From: Phyllobates terribilis
Taxonomy: Eukaryota
DNA: 64,000 nt
Reading direction: 5' to 3'
Assembly: GCF_046119375.1 (NCBI RefSeq)
Contig: NW_027362763.1
Location: 61,318,001-61,382,000, forward strand
The translations under genes and the position numbers were made by a program. The notes beneath the pieces are model-generated. The model was not told where the DNA came from and searched no databases. It worked only from the letters and a program-made list of their open reading frames with translations. Positions 3,780 to 41,220 of the stretch are shown here, in pieces. Each line of letters begins with the position of its first letter. The stretch's first letter is position 1.

Positions 3780-5240
3780 TTACCGTATTTTTCTGACTAT
3801 AAGACGCATTTTTTTTCCTCCAAAATTTAGGAGGAAAATGGGGGTTGCGTCTTATAGTCCAAATATATATGTACACTATGGCTGTGGGTGCTGGTGGGTG
3901 TGGGGGGAGCGGCGGAGGAGTGGGGCACAGTAGGCAGCAGATGCCTGCTGCAGCCTACACTGTGCCCGCTGCTAAAGAAAATGAATATTCACTGCTCCCC
4001 ACACCCAAAATATTAATTTTCCTTAATAGCGCGCACACTACCCGCAGCGTGGCTCCTGCTGCGCTCGGTGGTCAGGTGCCCGCTATTAAAGACTTTGAAT
4101 ATTCACTTAAAGCCACTCCCATGGGGAGTAATGAATATTCATGCTCTTTAACGGCAGGCACACAGACCACAGACCCGCAGCAGGAGCCGTGCTGCGGCTA
4201 CAGTGTACGCGCTATTAAAGGGGTTGTCAACTACTTTTTATTATCCCCCTAATGTATTCCCCCGAGGCCCATTGTAAATACCTTGCGTTGCAGTTGCTGC
4301 CTGTGAGCGGCGCTATCACTGGCCACTCACAGGCATCACGTGACCCCCGGCTGCAGCCAGCTCTGACATCCGCTGATGTCACGTCAAGTTCTGGCTGCTG
4401 CCGAGGGTGACTTACTTTGAGTTCCACGGTAGATGCTGGGTTACCCCGCGCGTCACACCCGGCATCCACCGTGCACTCTCTCTCCTCATTCACTGGGAAA
4501 GCGCGCGGTGGATGCTGGGTGTGACGCGCAGGGAAACCCCGCCCACAACCCGGAGTCCACAGCGGGGACCGAGTCACTGATGTCACGCTTCACTTGACAT
4601 GACATCATTGGCGGGTCACGTGAAGCCTGTGAGCAGTCAGCGATAGCGCCGCTCACAGGCAGTGACTGCAACGCAAGGTAATTACAAAAACTCTTATGGG
4701 CCCGAGGGAATACATCAGGGGGATAAATAAAAAGTAATGGACATCTTCTTTAAAAGGAGAGTGAATGGTTACTGCTCCCCACACACACAGTCCGGGCGTG
4801 GGGAGCAGTGAATATTCCGGCAGAGCATCTCACAGTGTGAGGGCGCATGGCAGTGACAACATGAGCGGCTCACACAGCGAGATCCCTGTCAGCAGCAGAG
4901 CAGGAAGCAGCGAGGAGGGGAGTATAATTGTTTATTTTTTTGTGTGCAGCGTGATGGGGATCAGGGGGTGCCAAGCATACCAGGAAGAGGGATGAGGGGG
5001 TGCCATACATACCAGAAAGAGGAATGAGGGGGGGGGCCCATACATACTAGGAAGAGGGATGAAGGGTGCCATGCATACCAGGATGGGGGAGGGGGGGGGG
5101 TGTGCCATGCATGCCAGGGATGGGGATGAGGGACACATAACCGGAAGGAGGGGGTCATATATACCAGGATGGGGGATATTCACAGAATTGGGGGACATTA
5201 CCCCTATAACCGTGTCAGCAGCAGACCCCCTCCCCCTTAT
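3780..5240. mobile_element. Non-autonomous pogo/Tigger-like element (truncated)
   Basis: Begins taccgtatttttctgactataagacgca. Its internal blocks (gaatattca hairpins; acattacccctataa..gtcagcag) recur at 29290-29843, which ends in the complementary aaaaatacggta. Confidence 0.45.
4215..4753. mobile_element. Palindromic TTAA-flanked MITE (T2/Kolobok- or piggyBac-type)
   Basis: TTAA at both ends; long nested inverted arms (ggggttgtcaactactttttattatccccc..gaggccc / gggcccgagggaatacatcagggggataaataaaaagta; ccttgcgttgcag / ctgcaacgcaagg). Confidence 0.75.
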
Positions 5241-15348: not shown

Positions 15349-15779
15349 CTGTTAAAAAATAACATCAAATCAATATAATGCAAAAAGTAGAACTAAATCA
15401 GAAAAGAAAATCAAAATATATGTTCTGTGTAAAATAAGAAGGAAACCTAAAAATCTGCAGTTTATAAAGCTTCCGCTTTTGGACATGTTCAGACAAACTT
15501 TGGGAGCCCCACAAAATCCAAGGATAGTACAGCTTGGCTATCTTCGGCAGTACCAGTAAGGATGAATGGAGCATAATTGAAAAAAAAAAAAACCAGACAC
15601 CTACTCCATTCATACAAGGCTCCAGGAAGCCAGCTTTGGTAGGAGTTTCTTAGGATAGGGGATAATATTCAATATTGGTACAAGACTAGTACCAGAGTTT
15701 AAATAATGTATGCTCTACATTAAAAAAAAAAACCTAGAAGACAAATTAGGATTAGTTTACAAGAACCAGTTCATCTCAC

Positions 15780-18700
15780 CTTTAAACCCATCTGTGGCAC
15801 TTTCTTGCTCTTCGCTATGATAGGGGTAGACATCATCACTCATCATATCCTTCTGTATGGGGTGGTCTTCTCCAGCAAGACTTGTGCGAGGCTGATCGGC
15901 TTTCATTAAGTCAACGGAGCTCAGGTCGTCCGGCTCTAGGTCCATACTCTGCACACCTTGCCAAAAGTTTTTCATTTCTTCGTTAATATTTAGTTCTTTA
16001 TATTTAATGGTTACAATTGCCATCGGTATCTGGCACCATCCGCTTTCTTGCACTTCACAAACCGTTAATTCCAGCGCATCTTCAGTAAACCTCTCATAAA
16101 AATATTGTTTGCCTTCCGAACTCCAGGTTCCCCCTTTCATGTCGAAGTTCGCCAGGCAGCACGAGAACGCTTGGGGAGGGAAGTTTACCAAGGATTCAGG
16201 AAGTTGCCGGATTTGGTCTCGCCCCACCGAGTCTTCGTTACCGTAGTCGATAAATCTGACGGTCACCAGATCTTCTTCCATTTTGGTAATGATAGCCCTG
16301 TACCAATTGTGATCCTCGCTAAACATGACATTGCAAGGGCTGCCGATCTTAAGGGAACCAGTAAAGTTGTCATCCTTGACATACTGTTCTCCAGCCACTT
16401 GGACTTGTGACGCTAAAGTGTCCATATCCACAGACGACAGCTGACACCAGAAACATTCAGGGCCATCTGCTGTACTGATATACACTTTTATGGATACTCC
16501 AGTTGGAGGCAACCTCCAAGCAAAGGACTGAACAGAAGTTTCTTCCTCCCTCGCAATCCTCATCTTCATGACCATTCTGTTTGCCTCCTCGACATTTTTC
16601 TGCTCTTCATTCAGCAGGTCATTAATGCAACCCAGGTTATCTTTAAGAACAACGTCCCACTTCAGACCATCTTGTTTCAGAAACTCACAATCTAGAACAT
16701 CACTCGTTCTTTTGGAAAACTCTGCCAGCATCTCCTCCAGGTTCGGTGCGGACAATGCGTTCTCAGGTTTATTTAAAGAGCAGTGAATGCTCATTATGGG
16801 AATGGAGAGACACTTCTGTGGGAGTCTGTAGTTCTTACAGTCAGAGACGATAGAAACGTTCCCGTAGTCTATGTACTCTATGCATAACCCTTGCTTGGTC
16901 GTTTCTTTCACCACTCCTCGATAGTACAGGCCATCATCGGGAAAATAAGCACAAATAACGTTTCCTTTGCTCACATCATCATCTCCAAGGTTCTCAAAAG
17001 AACTAGTTTTGCTGTTCAAAATGTCGGATATCTCATCCAGCCTCCTGTCTTCAGCAACCTGCACATAAAAGTCAAAAATAGAGTTGGTCTGGGAAACGTA
17101 CACATGTTCCTTCATTCCAGGGAAAATTTTTCTAATGGGAATATCCCTCAACGTCACCACAGGTAGTTTTGCTTGAGATTTGTGCTCAGATGCACTTACT
17201 GAGGTCTGTTTTTCTGAAGAGGTCTTGTTTCCAACTTGTTTGGGGTCTCGCCCTTGATAAGAACCGTTGGTTGATATTCTAGGGACGATTTCTGTCTTTT
17301 TTTGAGAACTCAAGTCATTAAAACGAGAATTGCAGTCTTTCTTTTCCACTTTATTTTGAAAGGTTGGGTTCCTTCTGTAATGTGGTGGTTCCGGTTCTCG
17401 ATCCATCTCCGAATGGCTATGAAAATTGGATTCTCTGCTTTTAACAGTTTTACCTACGGAGAAAGAAGTTGTTCTTTCTTGGTTGCTTGCATTATCAGGC
17501 AATTTTGTGAAATGATCCTGCTGGAAACTCATGAACTTATCAGGTGCCGAATGATCGGCCTTCTCTTTTGGAACCTTGAAACCCATTTTGCTTTTGAGGG
17601 TGGCATTAATTTGCCAGTCATCATCGTACAGTTCTACCAATAGCATTCCAGCCGAGTCTTTGGAAACAACCCGAGCTCTCAAGGCTTTATCCAAAACGAC
17701 ATCTTTAAACCAGGATACGATTTCTTTAGGAACCTTGGTTGGGATATCTGACAAGGAACATTTTATTGCCTGCATTGGCACCATTAAAAGTTCGCATTCA
17801 GTAGATGGAATGGGTAACAGGTACTTGTTTGAAACTTTTTCAGTGTTGCCAAAGTCGACAAAAAATATCTCGTTGCTTTCATCCTTAGACAGGATAAGAC
17901 CTCGATACCACCGTTGGTCCCTGGACTTTGCCAGACACAGAGCTCCATTGATAGGGGGCAATTTTCTCTTTTGTGATTTTTCTATAAACTTTGTAATATT
18001 TGATGAAATTTGTTTTATGGTATTGCCGCTTCTGGTTAGCTGCCCATAAAACATTAAAGAAGAGTCGACGTGCCTGATATAGATCTCCTCGTCGTTCCCG
18101 TATTTAATGCCATGCATTGAATAGTAGTAGGAGTGAAGCTGTACAGATGGTGACAGGCTTGTGTGATGAAGAGGTGTTGCAGAACCACTTTTCACCAGGG
18201 TATCGCTAGCACTGGAAAATGGGGTCATAAGATCCACAATATTAAACAGCTCGTTGTCCAGGTTGGCAGTTGCGTAAACTAAACAGTGGAATTCGGCCCC
18301 CTTGGAACCATTATGAACAAAATCCAGAAAAACCTTAGTGGCTTTATCATCCCAAACAAAAGGATTGTTCCCAGGAGGGGTAACGATATTGTAGACACTG
18401 CACCTAAAAGCCTGGGCCTTTAATTGGAGAAATTCGCTGTTTAAGGCACGTAGATTCGCAACAGGGACTGTTTCTCGATTGCCATAGTCCACATATAAGA
18501 CCTCAACGGTAGATGTTTGTGACAGGCTTGCCAGATCCTCGATGATGAACCCTCTGTACCATACTCTATTCGACGTACTTTTTGCAAGGCAGGCAAATGA
18601 GTTGTCGTTGTACGGACTATTTGTCGACTTGCAATGGCTCTGTATAGCGTTCATCAAAGCGTTAAGGTCTTGTTTAAAGGCGGCATCCTGACACCAAAAA

Positions 18701-20415
18701 TATCCAGGGTGGTCAACGCTTGACACCACAATCTCGATTGTTGTGCCGGGTTCAAATAACTGTTCTTCAAAGGGACAATAGAGCAAAGTCTCTACATTTT
18801 CTTCATTGTGATCAGCAGCAGCGGTCTCCTGCCCCTTGGTCACGTAATCTGCTGCAGCCGGATTTAAAGCAGTCTTACCTGACTCAACGTGTGCATCTTT
18901 CCCGTTGCTGGCATGGTTGTGAACGGAATCAATCTCCTCAAACCTGGCAAGTCCTACTTTTGTGAGTAGTTTTCCAACATTTGTCTCGTGAATCCTGGAT
19001 TGGTCCATGACCTCTATGGTATACTCGTCCGCATCTTTTGATACCACGTAAATGACAAGTTTTTTGTCAGCGACTGCTACTTTAAAGGCTAGGATGGCTT
19101 CCTGGCTCCAAGCGTTTTCTAGAGGGTACGTGTCGGCAAGGCAGCACCTATTTGCCAATGCTGGAAGTTTAGAAAATCCTGTGGGCAATTCCTTAATGTT
19201 GTACCAGTCCACCGTCTCCAACATCCCATTATCCAGAAAGTAAACTTTCACCTGCTTCTTAGTATCGACAGATATTACTTCAGCGCGGTAATACAAATCT
19301 TGATACCGAGCGCAGCATAGCTGTCCTGGTTTCGGCTCGGTTATGATACCTTCCAATTTAGAGGCTTGGGAATACAGCGTTGTCATCCCGGTAATCATTT
19401 CCTTATGTTTCGCCGCAAATTTTTCAATACGAACCCAAAAATTGAAAGGATCGATGACGAATTCCACCACCGCGTCTTCGAAGATGTCAGTCTTAAGTTC
19501 CACAGGAGGATATTTGGGATTATAGGGAGTGAGTTGAGGTTTTTTTGCAGGAATTTTCATATTACTCTCAGGTGGCAGCTCCGTCGTGCCGGTCGGGTTA
19601 ACCTGGCTTGATCTAAGGATCTGCGACCGCATTCTCACTAAGCCATTGAGGTTCATGCCATCTTCAGCAAACAGGTCGACCACGTACAAGTGTTCGAAGG
19701 AATTGTAGCACTCGATCTTGGCCACCACGTGCCTTTGGAGAAGCAAAGCATGCACATCGGATACAAACATCGGGTCCCAGTTGAAATCGCTGTTGGAAAT
19801 GCCGTACATCGTGCAAGGGAACGTAAACACGGGCAAGCGGAAGAAATCGGGGGCGAGGTTTCGCAGTCGGTTCGCAGGTATAACTTCTTTTTTACCCCAG
19901 TCGACATGGATGACCAGAGCTTGCTGTTTCTCCGGGAAGAACTCCTGCAGCAAGGAGCGGTGCCATCGGCCATCTTCGCCGCAAGACGCACACGGCTGCC
20001 CTAATGTTATCGATAATCGAGATGCCTGGTCTCCGCAGCTTTGCTGCTGGACTTCGTAATACTGGTGCATGCTCTCCGACAGGCGCTGGATTTCGTGAGA
20101 CATGCTCCGGAGCTGGCAAAAGAGGCGATGCGGGTCCAGTACCTGGGTCACCAGCACTGGTTCGGAGACGCCAATCTGAAGACGTGGGCAGAAGTATTCC
20201 ATGGTCACCATGCTAGGAGGCTGGCATGGATTAGCTGCCTGCTGGCGTGGATTGGCTGCCAGGGAGCCTTCAGGGCGTGTAAGGAGCGGATTTGCGCCGG
20301 CGGCCATATTGCTTGTGTCCGGAGTGGAGCTTTGGGGATATCTGTTGGCCGGTCCCGTGTTGGCGGCCATACTACTTGCAGCCTGAGAATATCTGTAGGG
20401 CTGTAGGCCGGACAT
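15780..20415 (-). CDS. TDRD6: TDRD6 giant exon 1: multi-Tudor germline (piRNA/germ-plasm) protein
   Basis: 1560-codon ORF with six extended Tudor repeats (WYRG..YVDYGN, WYRG..FVDFGN, YYRG..YIDYGN, WYRA..FIDYGN etc.). YFCPRLQIGVSEPVLVTQVLDPHRLFCQLRSMSHEIQRLSESM matches a human TDRD6 segment as I recall it. First ATG at 20415 with in-frame TAA upstream at 20467-20469; donor AAAG|gtgaga at 15780; synteny with SLC25A27/CYP39A1. Confidence 0.93.
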
Positions 20416-20559
20416 AATGTCAGGCAGGCCTGGATTCAAGTAGTTTACCAGGTCCTGGACCCTGCCTTAGTGGAGGAAACACAAAAGCCGGGAAGTCCCG
20501 CTTCTATGGCTCTCAGGGTCTTCCTTTTACCGTGACCAGTTGTTGTTTTTTTATCCTCC

Positions 20560-29941: not shown

Positions 29942-30044
29942 CATTCTCATCCATGTGGGAATAAAGCCCTTATAGAGGGACAGGAAGCCTTCACCGCGCA
30001 CAGCTTGAACAAAGCAATCTGTAGAAGACTTGTACAATATCCCC
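29942..30044 (-). CDS. SLC25A27: SLC25A27 exon 8
   Basis: ttacag|...[34 protein letters not shown]|gtaacg; 103 nt. Confidence 0.96.
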
Positions 30045-30322
30045 CTGTAAAATATAGAGAGACCACACATTGCACACGCAGTAGGACAGCACCAGCACCC
30101 TACAAGGCTGGACAAAGAATATAAAAAAGGNNNNNNNNNNNNNNNNNNNNNNNNNNNNNNNNNNNNNNNNNNNNNNNNNNNNNNNNNNNNNNNNNNNNNN
30201 NNNNNNNNNNNNNNNNNNNNNNNNNNNNNNNNNNNNNNNNNNNNNNNNNNNNNNNNNNNNNNNNNNNNNNNNNNNNNNNNNNNNNNNNNNNNNNNNNNNN
30301 NNNNNNNNNNNNNNNNNNNNNN

Positions 30323-30622: not shown

Positions 30623-30947
30623 TGTTCCAAATTATTATACAAATAATATTCTCAGATTTTCCCAAATTACCTATATGAATTGCAGTCATTGTAATTTTCC
30701 AGTCAAATAACTATTAGAGTACAATTGAAAGGTTTTTGTACAAACTGCCTGTGATAACAGTATATTTTTAAAAAAATAAAAAACTCAAACTGCACTCAAA
30801 ATGCATGTTCCAAATTATTATGCACAGCAGAGTTTTCAACCTTTTCATTTTAATAAAAAAAGGTCATTTTTGAAATTATAAGCATTAGCAGGTTATTACA
30901 AACTAAAATCAAACAGTTTTTAACTCAACTTTATTCTAGGTGATGTT

Positions 30948-32642
30948 TGTAACGGGTCTGGGAGGCGGAACCTCTGAGCAACTTATACAAGGGGGCAATC
31001 CTTGTAAGGAAGCGGGTGGCGACCAGGGAAGACAGGCAGGCGGTCACAGCAGGTGACCGGGACAGTCTCTGGGTAAACGGGCAGGAGGTCACAGCAAGTG
31101 ACCGGGACAGTCTCTGGGTAAACGGGCAGGAGGTCACAGCAAGTGCCCGGGGCAGTCTCTGGGTAAACGGGCAGGAGGTCACGGCAAGTGACCGGGGCAG
31201 TCTCTGGGTAAACGGGCAGGAGGTCACGGCAAGTGACCGGGGCAGTCTCTGGGTAAACGGGCAGGAGGTCACGGCAAGTGACCGGGGCAGTCTCTGGGTA
31301 AACGGGCAGGAGGTCACGGCAAGTGACCGGGGCAGTCTCTGGGTAAACGGGCAGGTACGACCTGTGACGGCTGAGCCTCCAGGTAGGCTAGCAGGCAGAT
31401 GGCAGATGAGTGCTCCCAGGTGAGCAGGCGAGAGTCTCAGGATAAGCAGGTGGTCACAGCATGTGACGGCGGAGCCTCCAGGTAGGCTAACAGGCAGGTA
31501 GCAGATGAGCGCTCCCAGGTGAGCGGGCAAGAGTCTCTGGACTGGCAGGTGGTCACAGCACGTGACGGCGGAGCCTCTAGGTAGGCTAACAGGCAGGTAG
31601 CAGATGAGCGCTCCCAGGTGAGCGGGCAAGAGTCTCTGGACTGGCAGGTGGTCACAGCACGTGACGGCGGAGCCTCTAGGTAGGCTAACAGGCAGGTAGC
31701 AGATGAGCGCTCCCAGGTGAGTGGGCAAAAGTCTCTGGACTGGCAGGTGGTCCCAGCACGTGACGGCGGAGCCTCCAGGTAGGCTATCAGGCAGGTAGCA
31801 GGTGAGCGCTCCCAGGTGAGTGGGCAAAAGTCTCTGGACTGGCAGGTGGTCCCAGCACGTGACGGCGGAGCCTCCAGGTAGGCTATCAGGCAGGTAGCAG
31901 GTGAGCGCTCCCAGGTGAGCGGGCAAGAGTCTCTGGACTGGCAGGTGGTCCCAGCACGTGACGGCGGAGCCTCCAGGTAGGCTATCAGGCAGGTAGCAGG
32001 TGAGCGGGCAAGAGTCTCTGGACTGGCAGGTGGTCACAGCACGTGACGGCGGAGCCTCCAGGTAGGCTATCAGGCAGATAGCAGGTGAGCGCTCCCAGGT
32101 GAGCGGGCAAGCTGGTCCATAGACAGACTGACAGGTGTCGGAAGGCAGACCGTCGGACCTCAGGCTAGCAAGCAGGAAAGCGGATGACAGGCAGGAATCA
32201 GGCAGCAAACTGGCAGGAGACTGGCAGCAAACTGGCAGGAGACTGGCAGGTAACTGGCAGGAGACTGGCAGGTAACTGGCAGGAGACTGGCAGGTAACTG
32301 GCAGGAGACTGGCAGGTAACTGGCAGGAGACTGGCAGGTAACTGGCAACGGGACCTGAGGGCTGAAGCAGAGTAGTGAACAGTGCAACAACATTGCTCGG
32401 GCACCTCCATTTTGGAGGAGGTGCCTTATATATGGAGGGATCCTCCGGCCATTGGCCGGGGACTCCTTAGGGCGACGCGCGCGGCCCCTTTAAGAGAGGG
32501 GGAGCGCGCGCGCGCCCTAAGCACAGTGACCGGGGGAGAGCGGGCGCTGCAAGCAGAGCGGGAGGAAGCCGCCGGGCACGGAGCAGAGAGGTGAGGGGAA
32601 CAGCGTTCCTGCCTAGCAGGAGGCAGGGACGCCGACGCTACA
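30948..32642 (-). repeat. 3' LTR (1695 bp) with 45-bp x7, ~99-bp x8 and 22-bp tandem arrays and an intact TATA/CCAAT module
   Basis: tgtaacgggtctggg ... gccgacgctaca; homologous to 36796-37982. Confidence 0.95.
32393..32455 (-). promoter_or_regulatory. LTR core promoter: CCAAT (32451-32455), TATATAAG (32425-32432), predicted TSS ~32402 starting GCCCGAGCAA
   Basis: TATA box lies 30 nt upstream of a decamer complementary to the PBS. Confidence 0.75.
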
Positions 32643-32644
32643 GT

Positions 32645-32676
32645 ACCCCCCCCTTTAGGCCCCCCCTTTTTTAGGC
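32645..32676 (-). other. Polypurine tract
   Basis: Minus strand AAAAAAGGGGGGGCCTAAAGGGGGGGTA immediately before the 3' LTR. Confidence 0.9.
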
Positions 32677-35600
32677 CAGACAAAAATTTAGCAAGGATGA
32701 GAGGGGCATGGATGTTCTCCCGGGGCTCCCATGTTCTCTCCTCAGGACCAAACCCCTTCCAATCCACTAGAAAAAAGGTCTTTCCTCTTACCCTTTTGGT
32801 GGCCAGAATGTTCTCTACCTCAAACTCGTCTTCAGCAGAAACCGGAGCAGGAGGCGTACCTGTAGACTTGGAAAAGGAGTTAAGTACCACGGGTTTGAGA
32901 AGAGATACATGGAAGGAGTTAGGAATCCGTAAGTTGGCCGGGAGTTTCAATTTATAGGCCACCGGGTTGATCTGTTTGATAACCTCCAGTGGGCCGATGA
33001 ACAGAGGCCCTAACTTATAGGAAGGAATCTTGAGCCGGACATATTTGGATGAGAACCAGACTTTATCTCCGGGACGAAATTGTGGGGAATCCAGGCGTTT
33101 TTTGTCGGCGTGTCTCTTCATCCGCTCGGACGACTGAAGGAGTGCGGATCGGGTACTCTCCCAAATGGAGGAAAATTTGCTAACGAGAGATTCCGCAGCC
33201 GGGTTGTCCACAGAGGTGGAGACAGGAAAAGGGATCCGAGGATGCTGACCGAAGACTACAAAAAACGGGGATTTAGAAGAAGATTCGCTCTCGTGATTGT
33301 TGTAAGAGAACTCGGCCCATGGTAGGAGATCCACCCAGTCTGAATGGTGGGCATTAACGAAGTGCCGGAGGTAACTGGTCAAATTCTGATTGATCCGCTC
33401 CACTTGACCATTGGACTGTGGGTGGTAAGCGGAGGAGAAGTCCAGGGTGACGGCGAGCAGTTTACATGTGGATCTCCAGAAGCGTGAGGTGAACTGAACC
33501 CCACGATCCGACACGATGTGGAGAGGCAGACCATGGAGACGGAAGATGTGGCGGATAAAGTCTTTAGCTAGCTCGGGAGCAGACGGGAGGCCTGGCAGGG
33601 GAATAAAATGAGCCATTTTAGAAAAGCGGTCAGCGACCACCCAAATGACCGTACAACCGGCAGAGACGGGGAGATCTGTTATGAAGTCCATAGCTATATG
33701 TTGCCATGGGGCAGCAGGCACAGGCAGAGGAAGAAGGCGGCCGGTAGGCAGGTGTCTCGGAACTTTGTTACGGGCGCAGGACACACAGGCAGAAACGAAG
33801 TCAATTACATCCTTGTGCAGGGTAGGCCACCAGTAGTGCCGGGTAATAAGCTGGAGGGTCTTTTCCTGACCGGCGTGCCCAGCTAGCTTAGACGAGTGAC
33901 CCCAGTGTAGAATCTTCTCCCGATCGGACACCGTTACGAACGTCTTACCGGGAGGGAGACGATTTAGGCCCACGGGGGCTACCTGCATTACTCTGGCGGG
34001 ATCGATGATGTGTTTAGGCTCCTCCTCAAGATCAGACACCAGAAAGGATCGGGACAGGGCGTCAGCTTTGATGTTCTTGTCAGCCGGACGAAAATGAAGA
34101 ATGAAATCAAAGCGGGCAAAAAACAAAGACCACCGGGCTTGGCGCGGGTTAAGTCTCTGGGCGCTCTGGAGATATGCCAAGTTCTTGTGGTCAGTGTAAA
34201 TTATTACCGGGTGGAGAGCCCCCTCGAGCAGGTAACGCCACTCCTCCAGTGCCATCTTAATGGCCAACAATTCTCGGTCTCCTATAGAATAATTGCGCTC
34301 AGAAGAGGAGAAAAGTTTGGAGAAAAAGCCGCAGGTTACCTTTCTTCCGGAAGAAGATTTTTGGGTAAGTACCGCCCCAGCTCCGGAGGAGGAAGCGTCA
34401 ACTTCTAGGAAGAATTGTTTGTTGCCGTCCGGACGATGCAGCACTGAGGCGGAGAGGAAGGCCTGTTTTAAGGAAAGAAATGCCTCCTCTGCTTCGGGCG
34501 GCCATTCTCTGGGGTTCGTACCTTTATGGGTGAGAGCACAGATAGGGGCGGTCCGGGAAGAGAAGTGCGGTATGAACAGGCGGTAATAGTTGGCGAAGCC
34601 CAGGAACCGCTGAATAGCCTTCAACCCCTCTGGTCGGGGCCACTTCTGGATGGCAGACAGTTTCTCAGGATCCATTTGTAGACCTGTCTGAGAGATTATG
34701 TAGCCCAGAAATGGAAGAGAGGTCTGCTCAAAGATGCACTTCTCATATTTAGCGTAGAGGTGGTTCTGCCTGAGCAGGACCTGACGAACGTCCCTCCGGT
34801 GAGTAGGAAGATCCGGAGAGAAGACCAAGATATCGTCCAGGTACACCACCACGCAGGAGTAGAGAAGATCACGGAAAATGTCATTGACCAACTCTTGAAA
34901 GACGGCAGGAGCGTTACAGAGACCGAAGGGCATCACAAGGTACTCATAGTGGCTGTCCCGGGTATTGAATGCCGTCTTCCACTCATCCCCCTGACGGATA
35001 CGGACCAGGTTATACGCCCCACGGAGATCCAGTTTGGTGAAGATTCTAGCCCCCCTCAGACGGTCAAATAATTCAGGAATAAGCGGAAGGGGGTATTTAT
35101 TCTTCACTGTAATCTGGTTTAGGCCTCTATAGTCTATACATGGACGGAGTGAGCCGTCCTTCTTTTTGACAAAGAAGAAGCCTGCTCCCGCCGGGGAGGT
35201 AGATTTCCGGATAAATCCCCGGGCCAGGTTCTCCTCAATATATTCAGACATGGACCGGGTTTCAGCAGCGGACAAAGGGTAGATTCGCCCACGGGGAGGA
35301 GTAGAGCCGGGCATCAGGTCGATTGGGCAGTCGTATGGTCTATGAGGAGGTAAAGTCTCTGCCTCTTTTTTATTGAAGACATCCGCATAAGACCAATAGG
35401 GAACCGGAAGACCGGGCAGATTGGCTGGGGTAGGAGAAGGACGGGCAGGACGAACGGGAACTAGACAAGTCTTATGGCAGTCCTGTCCCCAGCGAAGGAC
35501 CTCTCCGGTCTGCCAATCAAGCACGGGTGCATGTTTCTGGAGCCAAGGCAGGCCAAGCAATAGTGCGTGAGAGAGTCCAGGCAGAACATGAAAGGAGATG

Positions 35601-35859
35601 CTCTCAGAATGCAGCATTCCCACCTGTAGAGTCAGAGATTCGGTGAGGAGTTGGATGGGATGTGGTAAGAGGCCCCATCCACGGCGGCGACAGATAAAGG
35701 TACGGCCAGAGGTTTGGTGGGAATGTGGTATTTTTCTACCAGGGATTGAGAGATGACATTTCCAGCAGCTCCAGAGTCAAGTTGAGCCAGTTCAAAATAG
35801 CGGTTCTCTCCGCAGAAGATAGAAACAGACAGCATCAGGGATGGAGAGGGTTTACTTTT

Positions 35860-35904
35860 GTCTAGGGCGACCTCTCCGAGCGATCCTAGACACAGGCGTT
35901 TCCC
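35860..35904 (-). other. -1 ribosomal frameshift signal (G GGA AAC plus stem)
   Basis: Slippery heptamer at 35904-35898, five codons before the gag TAG; downstream stem GTCTAGG/CCTAGAC; the -1 frame leads into the protease. Confidence 0.8.
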
Positions 35905-36782
35905 GACCTCTCAGGACAGGAACGGATCCGGTGCTCCTTACTGCCACAGTAGAAACAGCTCCCCTCGGCACGACGTAAGTCTTGACGGGTCTTGACCATC
36001 TTGGTCTGGTCGACCTGTATAGGCTCAGGTGAGTGTGCCTGGAGAGTGACGGGTCTCTGAGAGGTAGGGACTAGACGTGGAATCCTCCTCTCACGGGTGA
36101 CCTCCCTAGCGCGCTCCTGGAACCGGATGTCAATCCGAGTGGCAAGTGTAATCAAGTCGTCGAGAGTGGTAGGAATGTCCCGACCAGCGAGTTCATCTTT
36201 AATACGGCCGGACAGACCCTCCCAGAAGACGGACACCAGGGCGTCGTTATCCCAGGCCAGCTCCGAAGCAAGGGTACGGAACCGTATGGCATATTGGCCC
36301 ACGGTGAGACTCCCTTGACGGAGGCGTAGCAGAGATGAGGCGGATGAGGTCCTCCGTCCGGGTTCGTCGAAGACCTTCCGGAAAGCCGTGAGAAAGGCTG
36401 GCAGGTCGGACACCAGAGAGTCTCCTCTCTCCCATAGAGGATTTAGCCAAGCCAGTGCCTCTCCCGTGAGATGGGACATGATGAAGGCTACTTTGGCCCG
36501 GTCGGAATTAAACTGGTGGGACTGGTGTTCAAAGTGCAGGGTGCACTAGTTAATGAAGCCCCGAGCTTGAGCGGAGTCGCCTCCGAAGCGAGGAGGTGCA
36601 GAAAGCCGGATTCCAGAGCAGGATACTATGGTATTGGTGGTTGCTGGTGGGGCAGTCAAAGTGTCCAGGCGAGTATTGACTTTCCGCAGGTGACCCAGGA
36701 TGGACTCCTGTTGGGACCTCTGTCGGGACAGTTCATGACAAAGGTCCGAGAGCGAGGGAGCTTGGGTGCCACCGGGTTCCAT
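35886..36782 (-). pseudogene. Retrotransposon gag with premature TAG at 36546-36548
   Basis: MEPGG..PPRFGGDSAQARGFIN*CTLHF..AFIMSHLTGEALAW..LRQGSLTVGQYAIRF..CFYCGSKEHRIRSC (CCHC knuckle); the two ORF-track pieces are in the same frame. Confidence 0.92.
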
Positions 36783-36783
36783 G

Positions 36784-36793
36784 GCCCGAGCAA
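36784..36793 (-). other. Non-tRNA primer-binding site TTGCTCGGGC
   Basis: 2 nt after the 5' LTR CA end; lacks the TGG start of tRNA PBSs; complementary to 32402-32393. Confidence 0.8.
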
Positions 36794-36795
36794 AC

Positions 36796-37982
36796 TGTAA
36801 CGGGTCTGGGAGGTGGAACCTCTGAGCAACTTATACAAGGGGGCAGTCCTTGTAAGGAAGCGGGTGGCGACCAGGGAAGACAGGCAGGCGGTCACAGCAG
36901 GTGACCGGGACAGTCTCTGGGTAAACGGGCAGGAGGTCACAGCAAGTGACCGGGACAGTCTCTGGGTAAACGGGCAGGAGGTCACAGCAAGTGACCGGGA
37001 CAGTCTCTGGGTAAACGGGCAGGAGGTCACAGCAAGTGACCGGGACAGTCTCTGGGTAAACAGGCAGGAGGTCACGGCAAGTGACCAGGGCAGTCTCTGG
37101 GTAAACGGGCAGATACGACCTGTGACGGCTGAGCCTCCAGGTAGGCTAGCAGGCAGATGGCAGATGAGTGCTCCCAGGTGAGCAGGCGAGAGTCTCAGGA
37201 TAAGCAGGTGGTCACAGCATGTGACGGCGGAGCCTCCAGGTAGGCTAACAGGCAGGTAGCAGATGAGCGCTCCCAGGTGAGCGGGCAAGAGTCTCTGGAC
37301 TGGCAGGTGGTCACAGCACGTGACGGCGGAGCCTCTAGGTAGGCTAACAGGCAGGTAGCAGATGAGCGCTCCCAGGTGAGCGGGCAAGAGTCTCTGGACT
37401 GGCAGGTGGTCACAGCACGTGACGGCGGAGCCTCTAGGTAGGCTAACAGGCAGGTAGCAGATGAGCGCTCCCAGGTGAGCGGGCAAAAGTCTCTGGACTG
37501 GCAGGTGGTCCCAGCACGTGACGGCGGAGCCTCCAGGTAGGCTATCAGGCAGGTAGCAGGTGAGCGCTCCCAGGTGAGCGGGCAAGAGTCTCTGGACTGG
37601 CAGGTGGTCACAGCACGTGACGGCGGAGCCTCCAGGTAGGCTATCAGGCAGGTAGCAGGTGAGCGCTCCCAGGTGAGCGGGCAAGCTGGTCCATAGACAG
37701 ACTGACAGGTGTCGGAAGGCAGACCGTCGGACCTCAGGCTAGCAAGCAGGAAAGCGGATGACAGGCAGGAATCAGGCAGCAAACTGGCAGGAGACTGGGG
37801 GACTCCTTAGGGCGACGCACGCGGCCCCTTTAAGAGAGGGGGAGTGCGCGCGCGCCCTAAGCACAGTGACCGGGGGAGAGCGGGCGCTGCAAGCAGAGCG
37901 GGAGGAAGCCGTCGGGCACAGAGCAGAGAGGTGAGGGGAACAGCGTCCCTGCCTAGCAGGAGGCAGGGACGCCGACGCTACA
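36796..37982 (-). repeat. 5' LTR (1187 bp) lacking the TATA/TSS block
   Basis: Matches the 3' LTR except for 5 vs 7 45-mers, 6 vs 8 ~99-mers and a ~233-bp deletion at ~37797 (90+185+233 = 508, the full length difference). Confidence 0.95.
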
Positions 37983-39529
37983 ATGTTACATTTGCACATA
38001 GGACCCCTTGTTCGAAAGGAGCTTCTGAACTCTCTCGTCCATTGAATTTGTCAGGTTTTGGATGGTTTCTGCTTCAATTGTTTTGCATGAGGACAGAATA
38101 CCCTCCCAGAGCTATTGCTTAGATGTGAACTGCCTCCCGCCATCATAGACACTCCTTTTGATGATGCTCCAGAGGTTCTCAATGGGTTTGAGGTCAGGGG
38201 AGCATGGAGGTCACACCATAAGTTTGTCCCCTTTTATGCCCATATCAGCCAGAGATGCAGATGTGTTATGTGCAGCATGAGACGGGGCATTATCATGCAT
38301 GAAAATGATCTCGATGGTCCAGATGGATGGAGTGGAGGATGGCTGGTTGATGGACACCCCATGCAAACATGGCTACGACGCTAACAAGGAGGAGGTGGAG
38401 TAATGTTTTGGGCTGGAATCATGGGGAGAGAGATTGTCGGCCCTTTTAGGATCCCTGAAGGGGTAAAGATGAACTCCATAATGTATGTTGAGTTTCTCAA
38501 ACAGCACTTCCTGCCATGGTTCAAGAAGAAGAACCGTGCATTCCGCAGCAAGATCATTTCATGCATGATAATGCCCCGTCTCATGCTGCACATAACACAT
38601 CTGCATCTCTGGCTGATATGGGCATAAAAGGGGACAAACTAATGGTGTGACCCCCATGCTCCCCTGACCTCAACCCCATTGAGAACCTCTGGAGCATCAT
38701 CAAAAGGAGTGTCTATGATGGCGGGAGGCAGTTCACATCTAAGCAACAGCTCTGGGAGGGTATTTTGTCCTCATGCAAAACAATTGAAGCAGAAACCATC
38801 CAAAACCTGACAAATTCAATGGACGAGAGAGTTCAGAAGCTCCTTTTGAACAAGGGGTCCTATGTGCAAATGTAACATCACCTAGAATAAAGTTTTGAGT
38901 TGAAAACTGTTTGATTTCAGTTTGTAATAACCTGCTAATGCTTATAATTTCAAAAATGACCTTTTTTTTTTCTTTATTAAAATGAAAAGGTTGAAAACTC
39001 TGCTGTGCATAATAATTTGGAACATGCATTTTGAGTGCAGTTTGAGTTTTTTATTTTTTTAAAAATATACTGTTATCATAGGCAGTTTGTACAAAAAACT
39101 TTCAATTGTACTCTAATAGTTATTTGACTGGAAAATTACAATGACTGCAATTCATATAGGTAATTTGGGGAAATCTGAGAAAATATTATTTGNNNNNNNN
39201 NNNNNNNNNNNNNNNNNNNNNNNNNNNNNNNNNNNNNNNNNNNNNNNNNNNNNNNNNNNNNNNNNNNNNNNNNNNNNNNNNNNNNNNNNNNNNNNNNNNN
39301 NNNNNNNNNNNNNNNNNNNNNNNNNNNNNNNNNNNNNNNNNNNNNNNNNNNNNNNNNNNNAGGGGACATTGTTGAAAGTTGTATTCTGCCCCCGCTGTCT
39401 CCAACAAGTGTAAAATTAAGAATGTCAACATTGTCTCCTGCACACGCCGATCTCAGCGCCGGCGCTTGGGAGCAGTCAGAACTGTACCACTTGTTTCCAA
39501 GTGCCGGTATGTGTCACACTGATGTCATC

Positions 39530-40715: not shown

Positions 40716-40801
40716 GATGTTGGGTCTTAAAGGGATTTTCAATTTTCAACAAGGTGGCCTATAAACAGGATTTGGACATATTAGCAGGAAAAGGTACTCA
40801 C

Positions 40802-40894
40802 CGGCCACACTTGTCCCTTGGCTGGTTCATTATCCTGGTCTTGATCACATCAGCGGGGGTCCCTAAAGTAGCAGCTACAAGTCCTGAACATATG
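40802..40894 (-). CDS. SLC25A27: SLC25A27 exon 7
   Basis: taaaag|..[31 protein letters not shown]|gtgagt; third carrier signature PxDxxKxR; 93 nt. Confidence 0.96.
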
Positions 40895-41220
40895 CTTTTA
40901 CGAAAGATGAACACGGATGTCAGACATTAGGACCATATAGTAGATAAACTTACAGAATAACAAATACCCACAACTAAATAGCTCTAAAATAATGTTTTTA
41001 ATTGTATAAATAAAAACGTTAGGTCAATTAGCCAAAAAGTGCGATCAGAAGCAGAGATGAGCGGATAAATTCACAGGACTCTGAACCAGTAGCCACATCA
41101 GTGGTCCGTACTCGCTGGACGGAAGCCTTGCGGACCACCTCCTACCTGCAGTCATCAGGGGGCTCCTCATTTGATTAACAGGCACGGTATGATGTCATGT
41201 GTGCATTACGCTGCAACAAC

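Follow-up and report, generated by a model that had tools for sequence, protein, structure and literature searches.

How does a retrotransposon begin to copy its RNA into DNA when its primer-binding site (PBS) is not the TGG-type site that a tRNA would recognize? The question is raised by a long terminal repeat (LTR) retrotransposon of the frog Phyllobates terribilis that resides in the 64,000-nucleotide stretch of DNA analyzed here, which we call the window and by which all positions are numbered (positions 61,318,001 to 61,382,000 of contig NW_027362763.1, RefSeq assembly GCF_046119375.1). An initial annotation had marked out 32393..36795 as a frog chromovirus bearing the signature of Tf1-type self-priming, in which the 5' end of the element's own RNA anneals to the PBS. 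The features that it described do lie within these limits, but the element reaches from 30948 to 37982 on the minus strand, where its TG...CA LTRs, flanks and Pfam domains identify it as a complete, though defective, copy of a Ty3/gypsy chromovirus. Our comparisons make it very likely that the family represented by this element primes reverse transcription with the 5' end of its own RNA and not with a tRNA. This reading applies to the family and not to the copy in the window.

Read along the minus strand, the 5' LTR terminates in ...TTACA at 36796 and is followed by GT, the 10-nt PBS TTGCTCGGGC (36793-36784), a single C and the ATG of gag (36782-36780), which bears out the annotated position of a non-TGG site 2 nt past the LTR and of a gag start 1 nt beyond it. 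The complement of the PBS, GCCCGAGCAA (32393..32402), begins exactly 30 nt past the first T of the TATA box TATATAAG (32425..32432), which is the sole TATAWAW within the 3' LTR; the G at 32402 is the predicted first nucleotide (+1) of the RNA. Both spacing and sequence are exactly as had been annotated, but box and complement belong to the 3' LTR and are absent from the 5' LTR. A hairpin with 9-bp arms that is kept across the window family stands between the TATA box and the predicted start. The ends of the element are symmetric (AC|TG...CA|GT). When 4144 internal 10-mers were searched against the 1695-bp LTR, exactly one had a perfect complement there, and because this sole 10-mer is the PBS, the match in the window element is beyond chance; the background in five other families is 4-12 of about 4100-4500 internal 10-mers.

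The window copy is nevertheless an exception within its own family. Its 5' LTR is without 234 bp equivalent to 32225-32458, the promoter and primer segment, with a junction near 37798; no TATAWAW is found in this LTR, and nothing in it comes closer to the primer than a match with 3 mismatches. Among 40 scored of 982 candidates, the deletion junction was matched over its full length at the window locus only, and the loss probably occurred after insertion. Since the 5' LTR has lost both the TATA box and the primer complement, and gag and pol are broken, this copy cannot give rise to a self-priming transcript from that LTR, and the proposal that it primes itself was rejected. For 30 loci picked by the PBS-gag junction side only (the best of 40 scored among 655 candidates), pairing of the PBS with the locus's own 5' LTR is 10/10 in 26 and has one mismatch in 2, the remaining 2 being the window copy itself and one whose sequence runs off the locus. 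A non-tRNA PBS complementary to the 5' LTR is accordingly found in the family (26/30), and the window copy has the complement in its 3' LTR only.

The evidence that carries our interpretation is that a PBS 2 nt past the LTR is complementary to 9-11 nt that a TATA-like box precedes by ~30 nt, and that these two sites change together. Three gag searches provided 88 loci, in which the LTR end and the promoter were placed by flanking sequence only; queries P0003 and P0005 led to the window's own wider family and to no new families. Both anchors were present in 76 of the 88 (12 loci without an anchor were dropped), and 64 copies were left after collapsing 12 near-identical ones, with a one-base register corrected by hand at L121 and L146. 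Three natural primer types recur, GCCCGAGCAA, GCCCGTGCAA and GCCTGTGCAA, each paired with its own complementary PBS. Primer position 6 is paired in all 64 copies, as A:T in 34 and T:A in 30, and position 4 in 61 (C:G 53, T:A 8). Pairing is perfect in 34/64 copies, compared to a mean of 15.4 and a maximum of 26 among 5000 PBS shuffles in which relatedness was ignored. As a separate observation on this family, L173-L176 and L183-L190 are near-identical copies distributed across many small contigs, a pattern which suggests that amplification of a larger repeated unit carried a copy along with it.

Covariation extends beyond this family. A DUF4939 search of the 10.6-Gb assembly detected 46,492 first-look candidates with a sushi-like gag, a figure not to be read as copy number, and 58 elements of other families were examined. 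Reference copies with an LTR pair defined the LTR end, which was then transferred by alignment (in 4 by motif) and so located in 50 of them; 8 were without an LTR end, and that of L037 is doubtful. In 31 of the 50 the complement is perfect and a TATA-like box precedes it by 26-34 nt; there is a complement with at most one mismatch in 41 and with at most two in 43, and a TGG-type PBS in none of these 50 related elements. Two nested sushi-like families that were found without any PBS criterion (L246 4510-9481 and L259 3311-8745, inside older copies) also self-pair, one through 9 bp at an offset of 2 and the other through 10 bp at an offset of 1. All families examined that possess an LTR pair have the match at the PBS, as an exact 10-mer in the window element, L221, L238, L260 and L259n and over 9 nt in L246n. 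The top matches to PF03732, for example L061-L090, were excluded from this survey; they are small unplaced contigs with a gag resembling that of plant gypsy elements and are likely to be plant DNA within the assembly.

Altogether, ten distinct self-pairing primer/PBS types were recognized in the genome. Eight of the ten positions vary, G1 and G5 are invariant among the ten primer types, position -1 is always T, and the PBS is offset from the LTR end by 2 nt, once by 1 nt. For 11 representatives of the ten types, the AT-richest 7-mer of the interval -60..-10 includes one whose start falls between -29 and -32 (some representatives have ties), position -1 is T and +1 is G throughout, and in 10 of the 11 the helix is unable to extend upstream of +1. 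So sharp an edge at +1 is what the 5' end of an RNA would be expected to give. Pairing is thus kept through compensatory change, by independent events that are few. The control consisted of 12 elements with a PNMA gag, of which 7 without an LTR pair were left out; a TGG site lies at +1 wherever the LTR end is clear (4 elements, one family), and in all 5 elements that do have an LTR pair even the best self-complement contains at least 2 mismatches. The examination of PBS and start-site covariation across subfamilies that the initial annotation had recommended was therefore carried out with a favorable outcome, in 64 copies, 50 other elements and two nested families, and its proposal of Tf1-type priming gains support for the family, but not for the copy on which it was based.

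The steps by which such an element might prime itself can be laid out as follows. RNA polymerase II would start at the G located 30 nt from the TATA box (the equivalent of 32402), and the first ~10 nt of the transcript would fold over a loop of 170-1450 nt onto the PBS, with a U5-leader duplex assisting the pairing in several families. The RNase H of the element's reverse transcriptase (RT), a domain that is present in pol, might then cut after about nt 10-11, as in Tf1, and the freed 3'-OH of a 9-11-nt primer would start the minus-strand DNA. An extension of 2 nt beyond the CA would be left and subsequently trimmed by integrase, which fits the AC|TG...CA|GT ends. The assisting duplex was examined in 16 elements by pairing the terminal 55 nt of the LTR with the leader past the PBS and, for comparison, with 300 shuffled leaders. 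It surpasses the shuffles (0-6 of 300) in L260, L231, L040, L103, L221, L238, L253 and L246n and is moderate (9-22 of 300) in L128, L117, L159 and L107; it usually spans the gag ATG, and on inspection its arms vary between families in a complementary fashion. In the window element, leader folding gives a candidate duplex of this kind around the PBS (36775..36820, minus strand) with 7-bp arms, the 3' arm of which overlaps the gag ATG. The upstream duplex is short and variable, and the downstream one is strong in several families and weak in the window subfamily.

A number of observations weigh against self-priming or temper the evidence for it. Between one and three positions depart from Watson-Crick pairing, in a one-sided manner, in 30 of the 64 copies; many of these departures are C>T or G>A, and the one-sided mismatches may reflect decay. 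On the gag tree there are just 2 and 3 changes, the primer and PBS counts being equal, and a sign test on this tree is underpowered and cannot reach significance. Recombination could make some of the changes non-independent, and should plus-strand synthesis copy the primer into the PBS, part of the covariation would be made by the mechanism itself. The TATA pattern used for the count of 50 elements was defined after boxes had been seen, and the 11 representatives had been selected as perfect pairs. The U5-leader duplex falls short of significance in four elements, for which 58-175 of 300 shuffles match it: L247 (58), L259n (175) and the pair L006 and L130 from the window's own subfamily (72 and 130). 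In equilibrium folding of 17 whole predicted leaders, the primer helix has a probability of at least 0.79 in only 9 and of 0.3-0.5 in 3; because it is at most 0.12 in 5, the helix would not always be the equilibrium state. The RNA start site, the cleavage and the ends of the cDNA are all inferred, and tRNA fragments were excluded by argument, with a direct screen that covered the tRNA-Lys(TTT) genes alone.

Among the other explanations, the one that survives best, improbable as we consider it, is that the helix is real but structural, with a part in packaging, dimerization or the control of gag translation, and that priming depends on another primer or the RNA starts further upstream. Covariation demonstrates pairing and not priming, the gag ATG is 1 nt from the PBS, and the predicted folds of several families include competing hairpins in which the PBS or the ATG would be hidden, all of which such a role could accommodate. 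It does not account as readily for a paired segment that is exactly at the position of a primer (LTR+2 or +1), for the sharp 5' edge of the helix at a fixed distance from an AT-rich box, or for the fact that no alternative priming site was seen among the 50 elements. Priming by a host tRNA, a tRNA half or another small RNA, to which the LTR complement would be incidental, is very unlikely. Retrotransposons of other lineages do use half-tRNAs as primers (PMC6317226), and the host tRNAs screened were Lys-TTT genes alone: a search of the assembly with RF00005 gave clusters of tRNA-Lys(TTT) only, in which the longest match to the PBS is 5 nt. The PBS is, however, without a TGG start, as many as ten host primers would be required for its ten types, each coinciding with the LTR at TATA+30, and the TGG-type controls are without a self-complement. 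Chance complementarity or an assembly artefact, for which it can be said that 0.1-0.3% of the internal 10-mers in other families have an LTR complement, scarcely enters into consideration, the match coinciding with the PBS in all families examined that have an LTR pair and the pairing recurring in dozens of dispersed copies.

Self-priming by the window family, as preferred here, would have consequences for the relations between these elements and their host. The 3' fragments of tRNAs block tRNA-primed LTR elements at the PBS, according to PMC7599909, and the family might escape this block. If so, tens of thousands of gag-bearing candidates would copy themselves without offering a tRNA site to tRNA-fragment defences, and the 46,492 first-look candidates in an assembly of 10.6 Gb give the matter some bearing on genome size. 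The covariation of ten types upgrades what was a single suggestive match to comparative evidence and names the nucleotides concerned, +1 and +10/+11. Perhaps, although we would sooner doubt than assert it, this genome amounts to the first systematic comparative proof of vertebrate self-priming together with a rule set for it: ten compensating types, T|G ~30 nt past a TATA-like box, a PBS 2 nt (once 1 nt) off the LTR and an invariant G5.

The remaining anatomy of the window element is that of a recent insertion. Its flanks carry the 5-bp target-site duplication ATGTT at 37983..37987 on the 5'-LTR side and at 30943..30947 on the 3'-LTR side. In LTR-LTR alignment, the 5' LTR (36796..37982, minus strand, 1187 bp) contains a smaller number of tandem-repeat units than does the 3' LTR (30948..32642, minus strand, 1695 bp), in which the promoter is intact and repeats of 11/22, 99 and 45 bp are all downstream of the predicted RNA start. 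A motif search of the 3' LTR (30948-32642) detected no AATAAA or ATTAAA. One or more polypurine tracts (32646..32672, minus strand) directly precede this LTR. The insertion is young, because the LTR pair differs at only 15 sites over 1187 aligned bases, every one of them a transition.

Between the LTRs, which are bordered by the target duplication, the order protease, RT, RNase H and integrase is that of Ty3/gypsy elements. Pfam domains and translated frames place pol at 32426..35900 (minus strand), with protease, RT, RNase H, integrase, SH3 and a chromodomain at the C-terminus of integrase (PF00385, E 4.4e-11), and its best match is Ty3. The gag gene (35886..36782, minus strand), with a capsid and a CCHC knuckle of the form CX2CX4HX4C, matches PF03732, PF19259 and PF16297 (with DUF4939 among the domains found) and has a sushi/PEG10-like capsid, its single match in the PDB being the PEG10 capsid (7lga, E 3.8e-9). 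An in-frame stop (36546-36548) disrupts gag, the pol frame is broken near 35670 within the protease, and the RT is short by 2 residues, a gap, relative to P0038. The protease is in the -1 frame relative to gag, and frame analysis locates at the end of gag a G GGA AAC heptamer (35898..35904, minus strand), which resembles the frameshift heptamer of PEG10. Heptamer and frame suggest a programmed -1 ribosomal frameshift at the gag-pol junction, a junction typical of the Tf1/sushi group outside the fission yeasts; the predicted fold downstream of the heptamer is not significant (z -0.69), and an Rfam scan of 30900-38000 gave zero matches. The related young family L221-L233 and L237, with LTR pairs up to 100% identical, has a single open frame of ~1499 aa, as opposed to the split gag and pol of the window family. 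The named relatives comprise frog proteins, with identities of at most 95% over RT (labelled dendrobatid) and of 68-73% for Xenopus, and fish proteins (~60%). The RT tree puts the window RT among frog and fish relatives and apart from the fungal ones, in a set that did not include sushi-ichi, Amn-san or Tf1; its labels L244, L246, L256, L258 and L259 denote the RTs of nested elements and not those of the host copies.

The element is in sense orientation within an intron of the gene for mitochondrial uncoupling protein 4 (UCP4, SLC25A27; nine exons, 28926-54697, minus strand), between the exons 40801-40896 and 29942-30046. It inserted there into a rearranged inverted-repeat DNA element (30646-30928 and 37983-39184) with transposase-like remnants, which are probably Tc1-like to judge by a motif. 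The window also contains a 1569-aa open frame with six Tudor domains (15760-20466, minus strand), presumably TDRD6-like. Elsewhere in the assembly there are large tRNA gene clusters (C1 816.9-817.9 Mb, C11 574-576 Mb), and those scanned are all tRNA-Lys(TTT), some of the genes ~1050 bp apart.

How does this family compare with known systems? Reviews that touch on the subject refer to Lin and Levin 1997 and to Butler et al. 2001, describe or implicate self-priming in members of the Tf1/sushi group whose hosts range from fungi to vertebrates, and call it a common feature of the group (PMC6317226, PMC4600332, PMC10085805), in agreement with the initial annotation, which had considered the mechanism established for Tf1 and proposed for vertebrate sushi-like elements. 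We therefore rejected the notion that the finding is categorically new, self-priming having already been described for this group; what is added here is the comparative support and the exact, testable positions, the mechanism itself being known. Our literature search found no test of self-priming in a vertebrate, with the primary papers, including Butler 2001 and its possible covariation, beyond its reach. The window family would fit the vertebrate Tf1/sushi group by the sequence features considered, as distinct from a direct comparison with reference elements. With the vertebrate sushi-like elements (sushi-ichi and Amn-san, of which the Amn-san chromoviruses are given as the most abundant type of LTR element in Silurana by PMC4131045) it shares a chromodomain integrase, a PEG10-related CCHC gag, a predicted -1 frameshift, a non-tRNA PBS complementary to the LTR and an RT that groups with frog and fish proteins; it differs in having its own primer sequence and a repeat-filled LTR of 0.8-1.7 kb.

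As for Tf1 and Tf2 of Schizosaccharomyces pombe (and Tj1, Tosmo1-3 and Tcry1), the likeness, as far as these elements are described in the sources cited, consists of an RNA 5' end that complements the PBS and of flanking duplexes. In Tf1 RNA the PBS is bound by the first 11 bases, and the cut by RNase H falls between bases 11 and 12, in the account given by PMC7175516, and Tf1 needs three duplexes around the PBS, a "pretzel", in that of PMC10085805. The frog family has 9-10 fixed Watson-Crick pairs and a variable 11th. Unlike Tf1, which is without CCHC and has a single open reading frame, it possesses a gag with a CCHC motif and a -1 frame junction. One flanking duplex is supported in the frog families, weakly in the window subfamily, and the frog system is known here from its sequence alone. 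For moss and fungal chromoviruses of the Tcn1 clade, self-priming has likewise been predicted, the sign being a complement of 10 bp or more that begins 0-5 bp past the LTR; these have other hosts, and the blastn rule, as outlined in PMC6317226, is presented there without mention of TATA anchoring or covariation. With PEG10 and RTL1, the family has in common the capsid similarity of the window gag to 7lga (E 3.8e-9). PEG10 also carries the G GGA AAC heptamer that is found at the end of the window gag. Both PEG10 and RTL1 are domesticated mammalian genes that were derived from sushi elements and are without LTRs, whereas the frog family is mobile and present in high copy.

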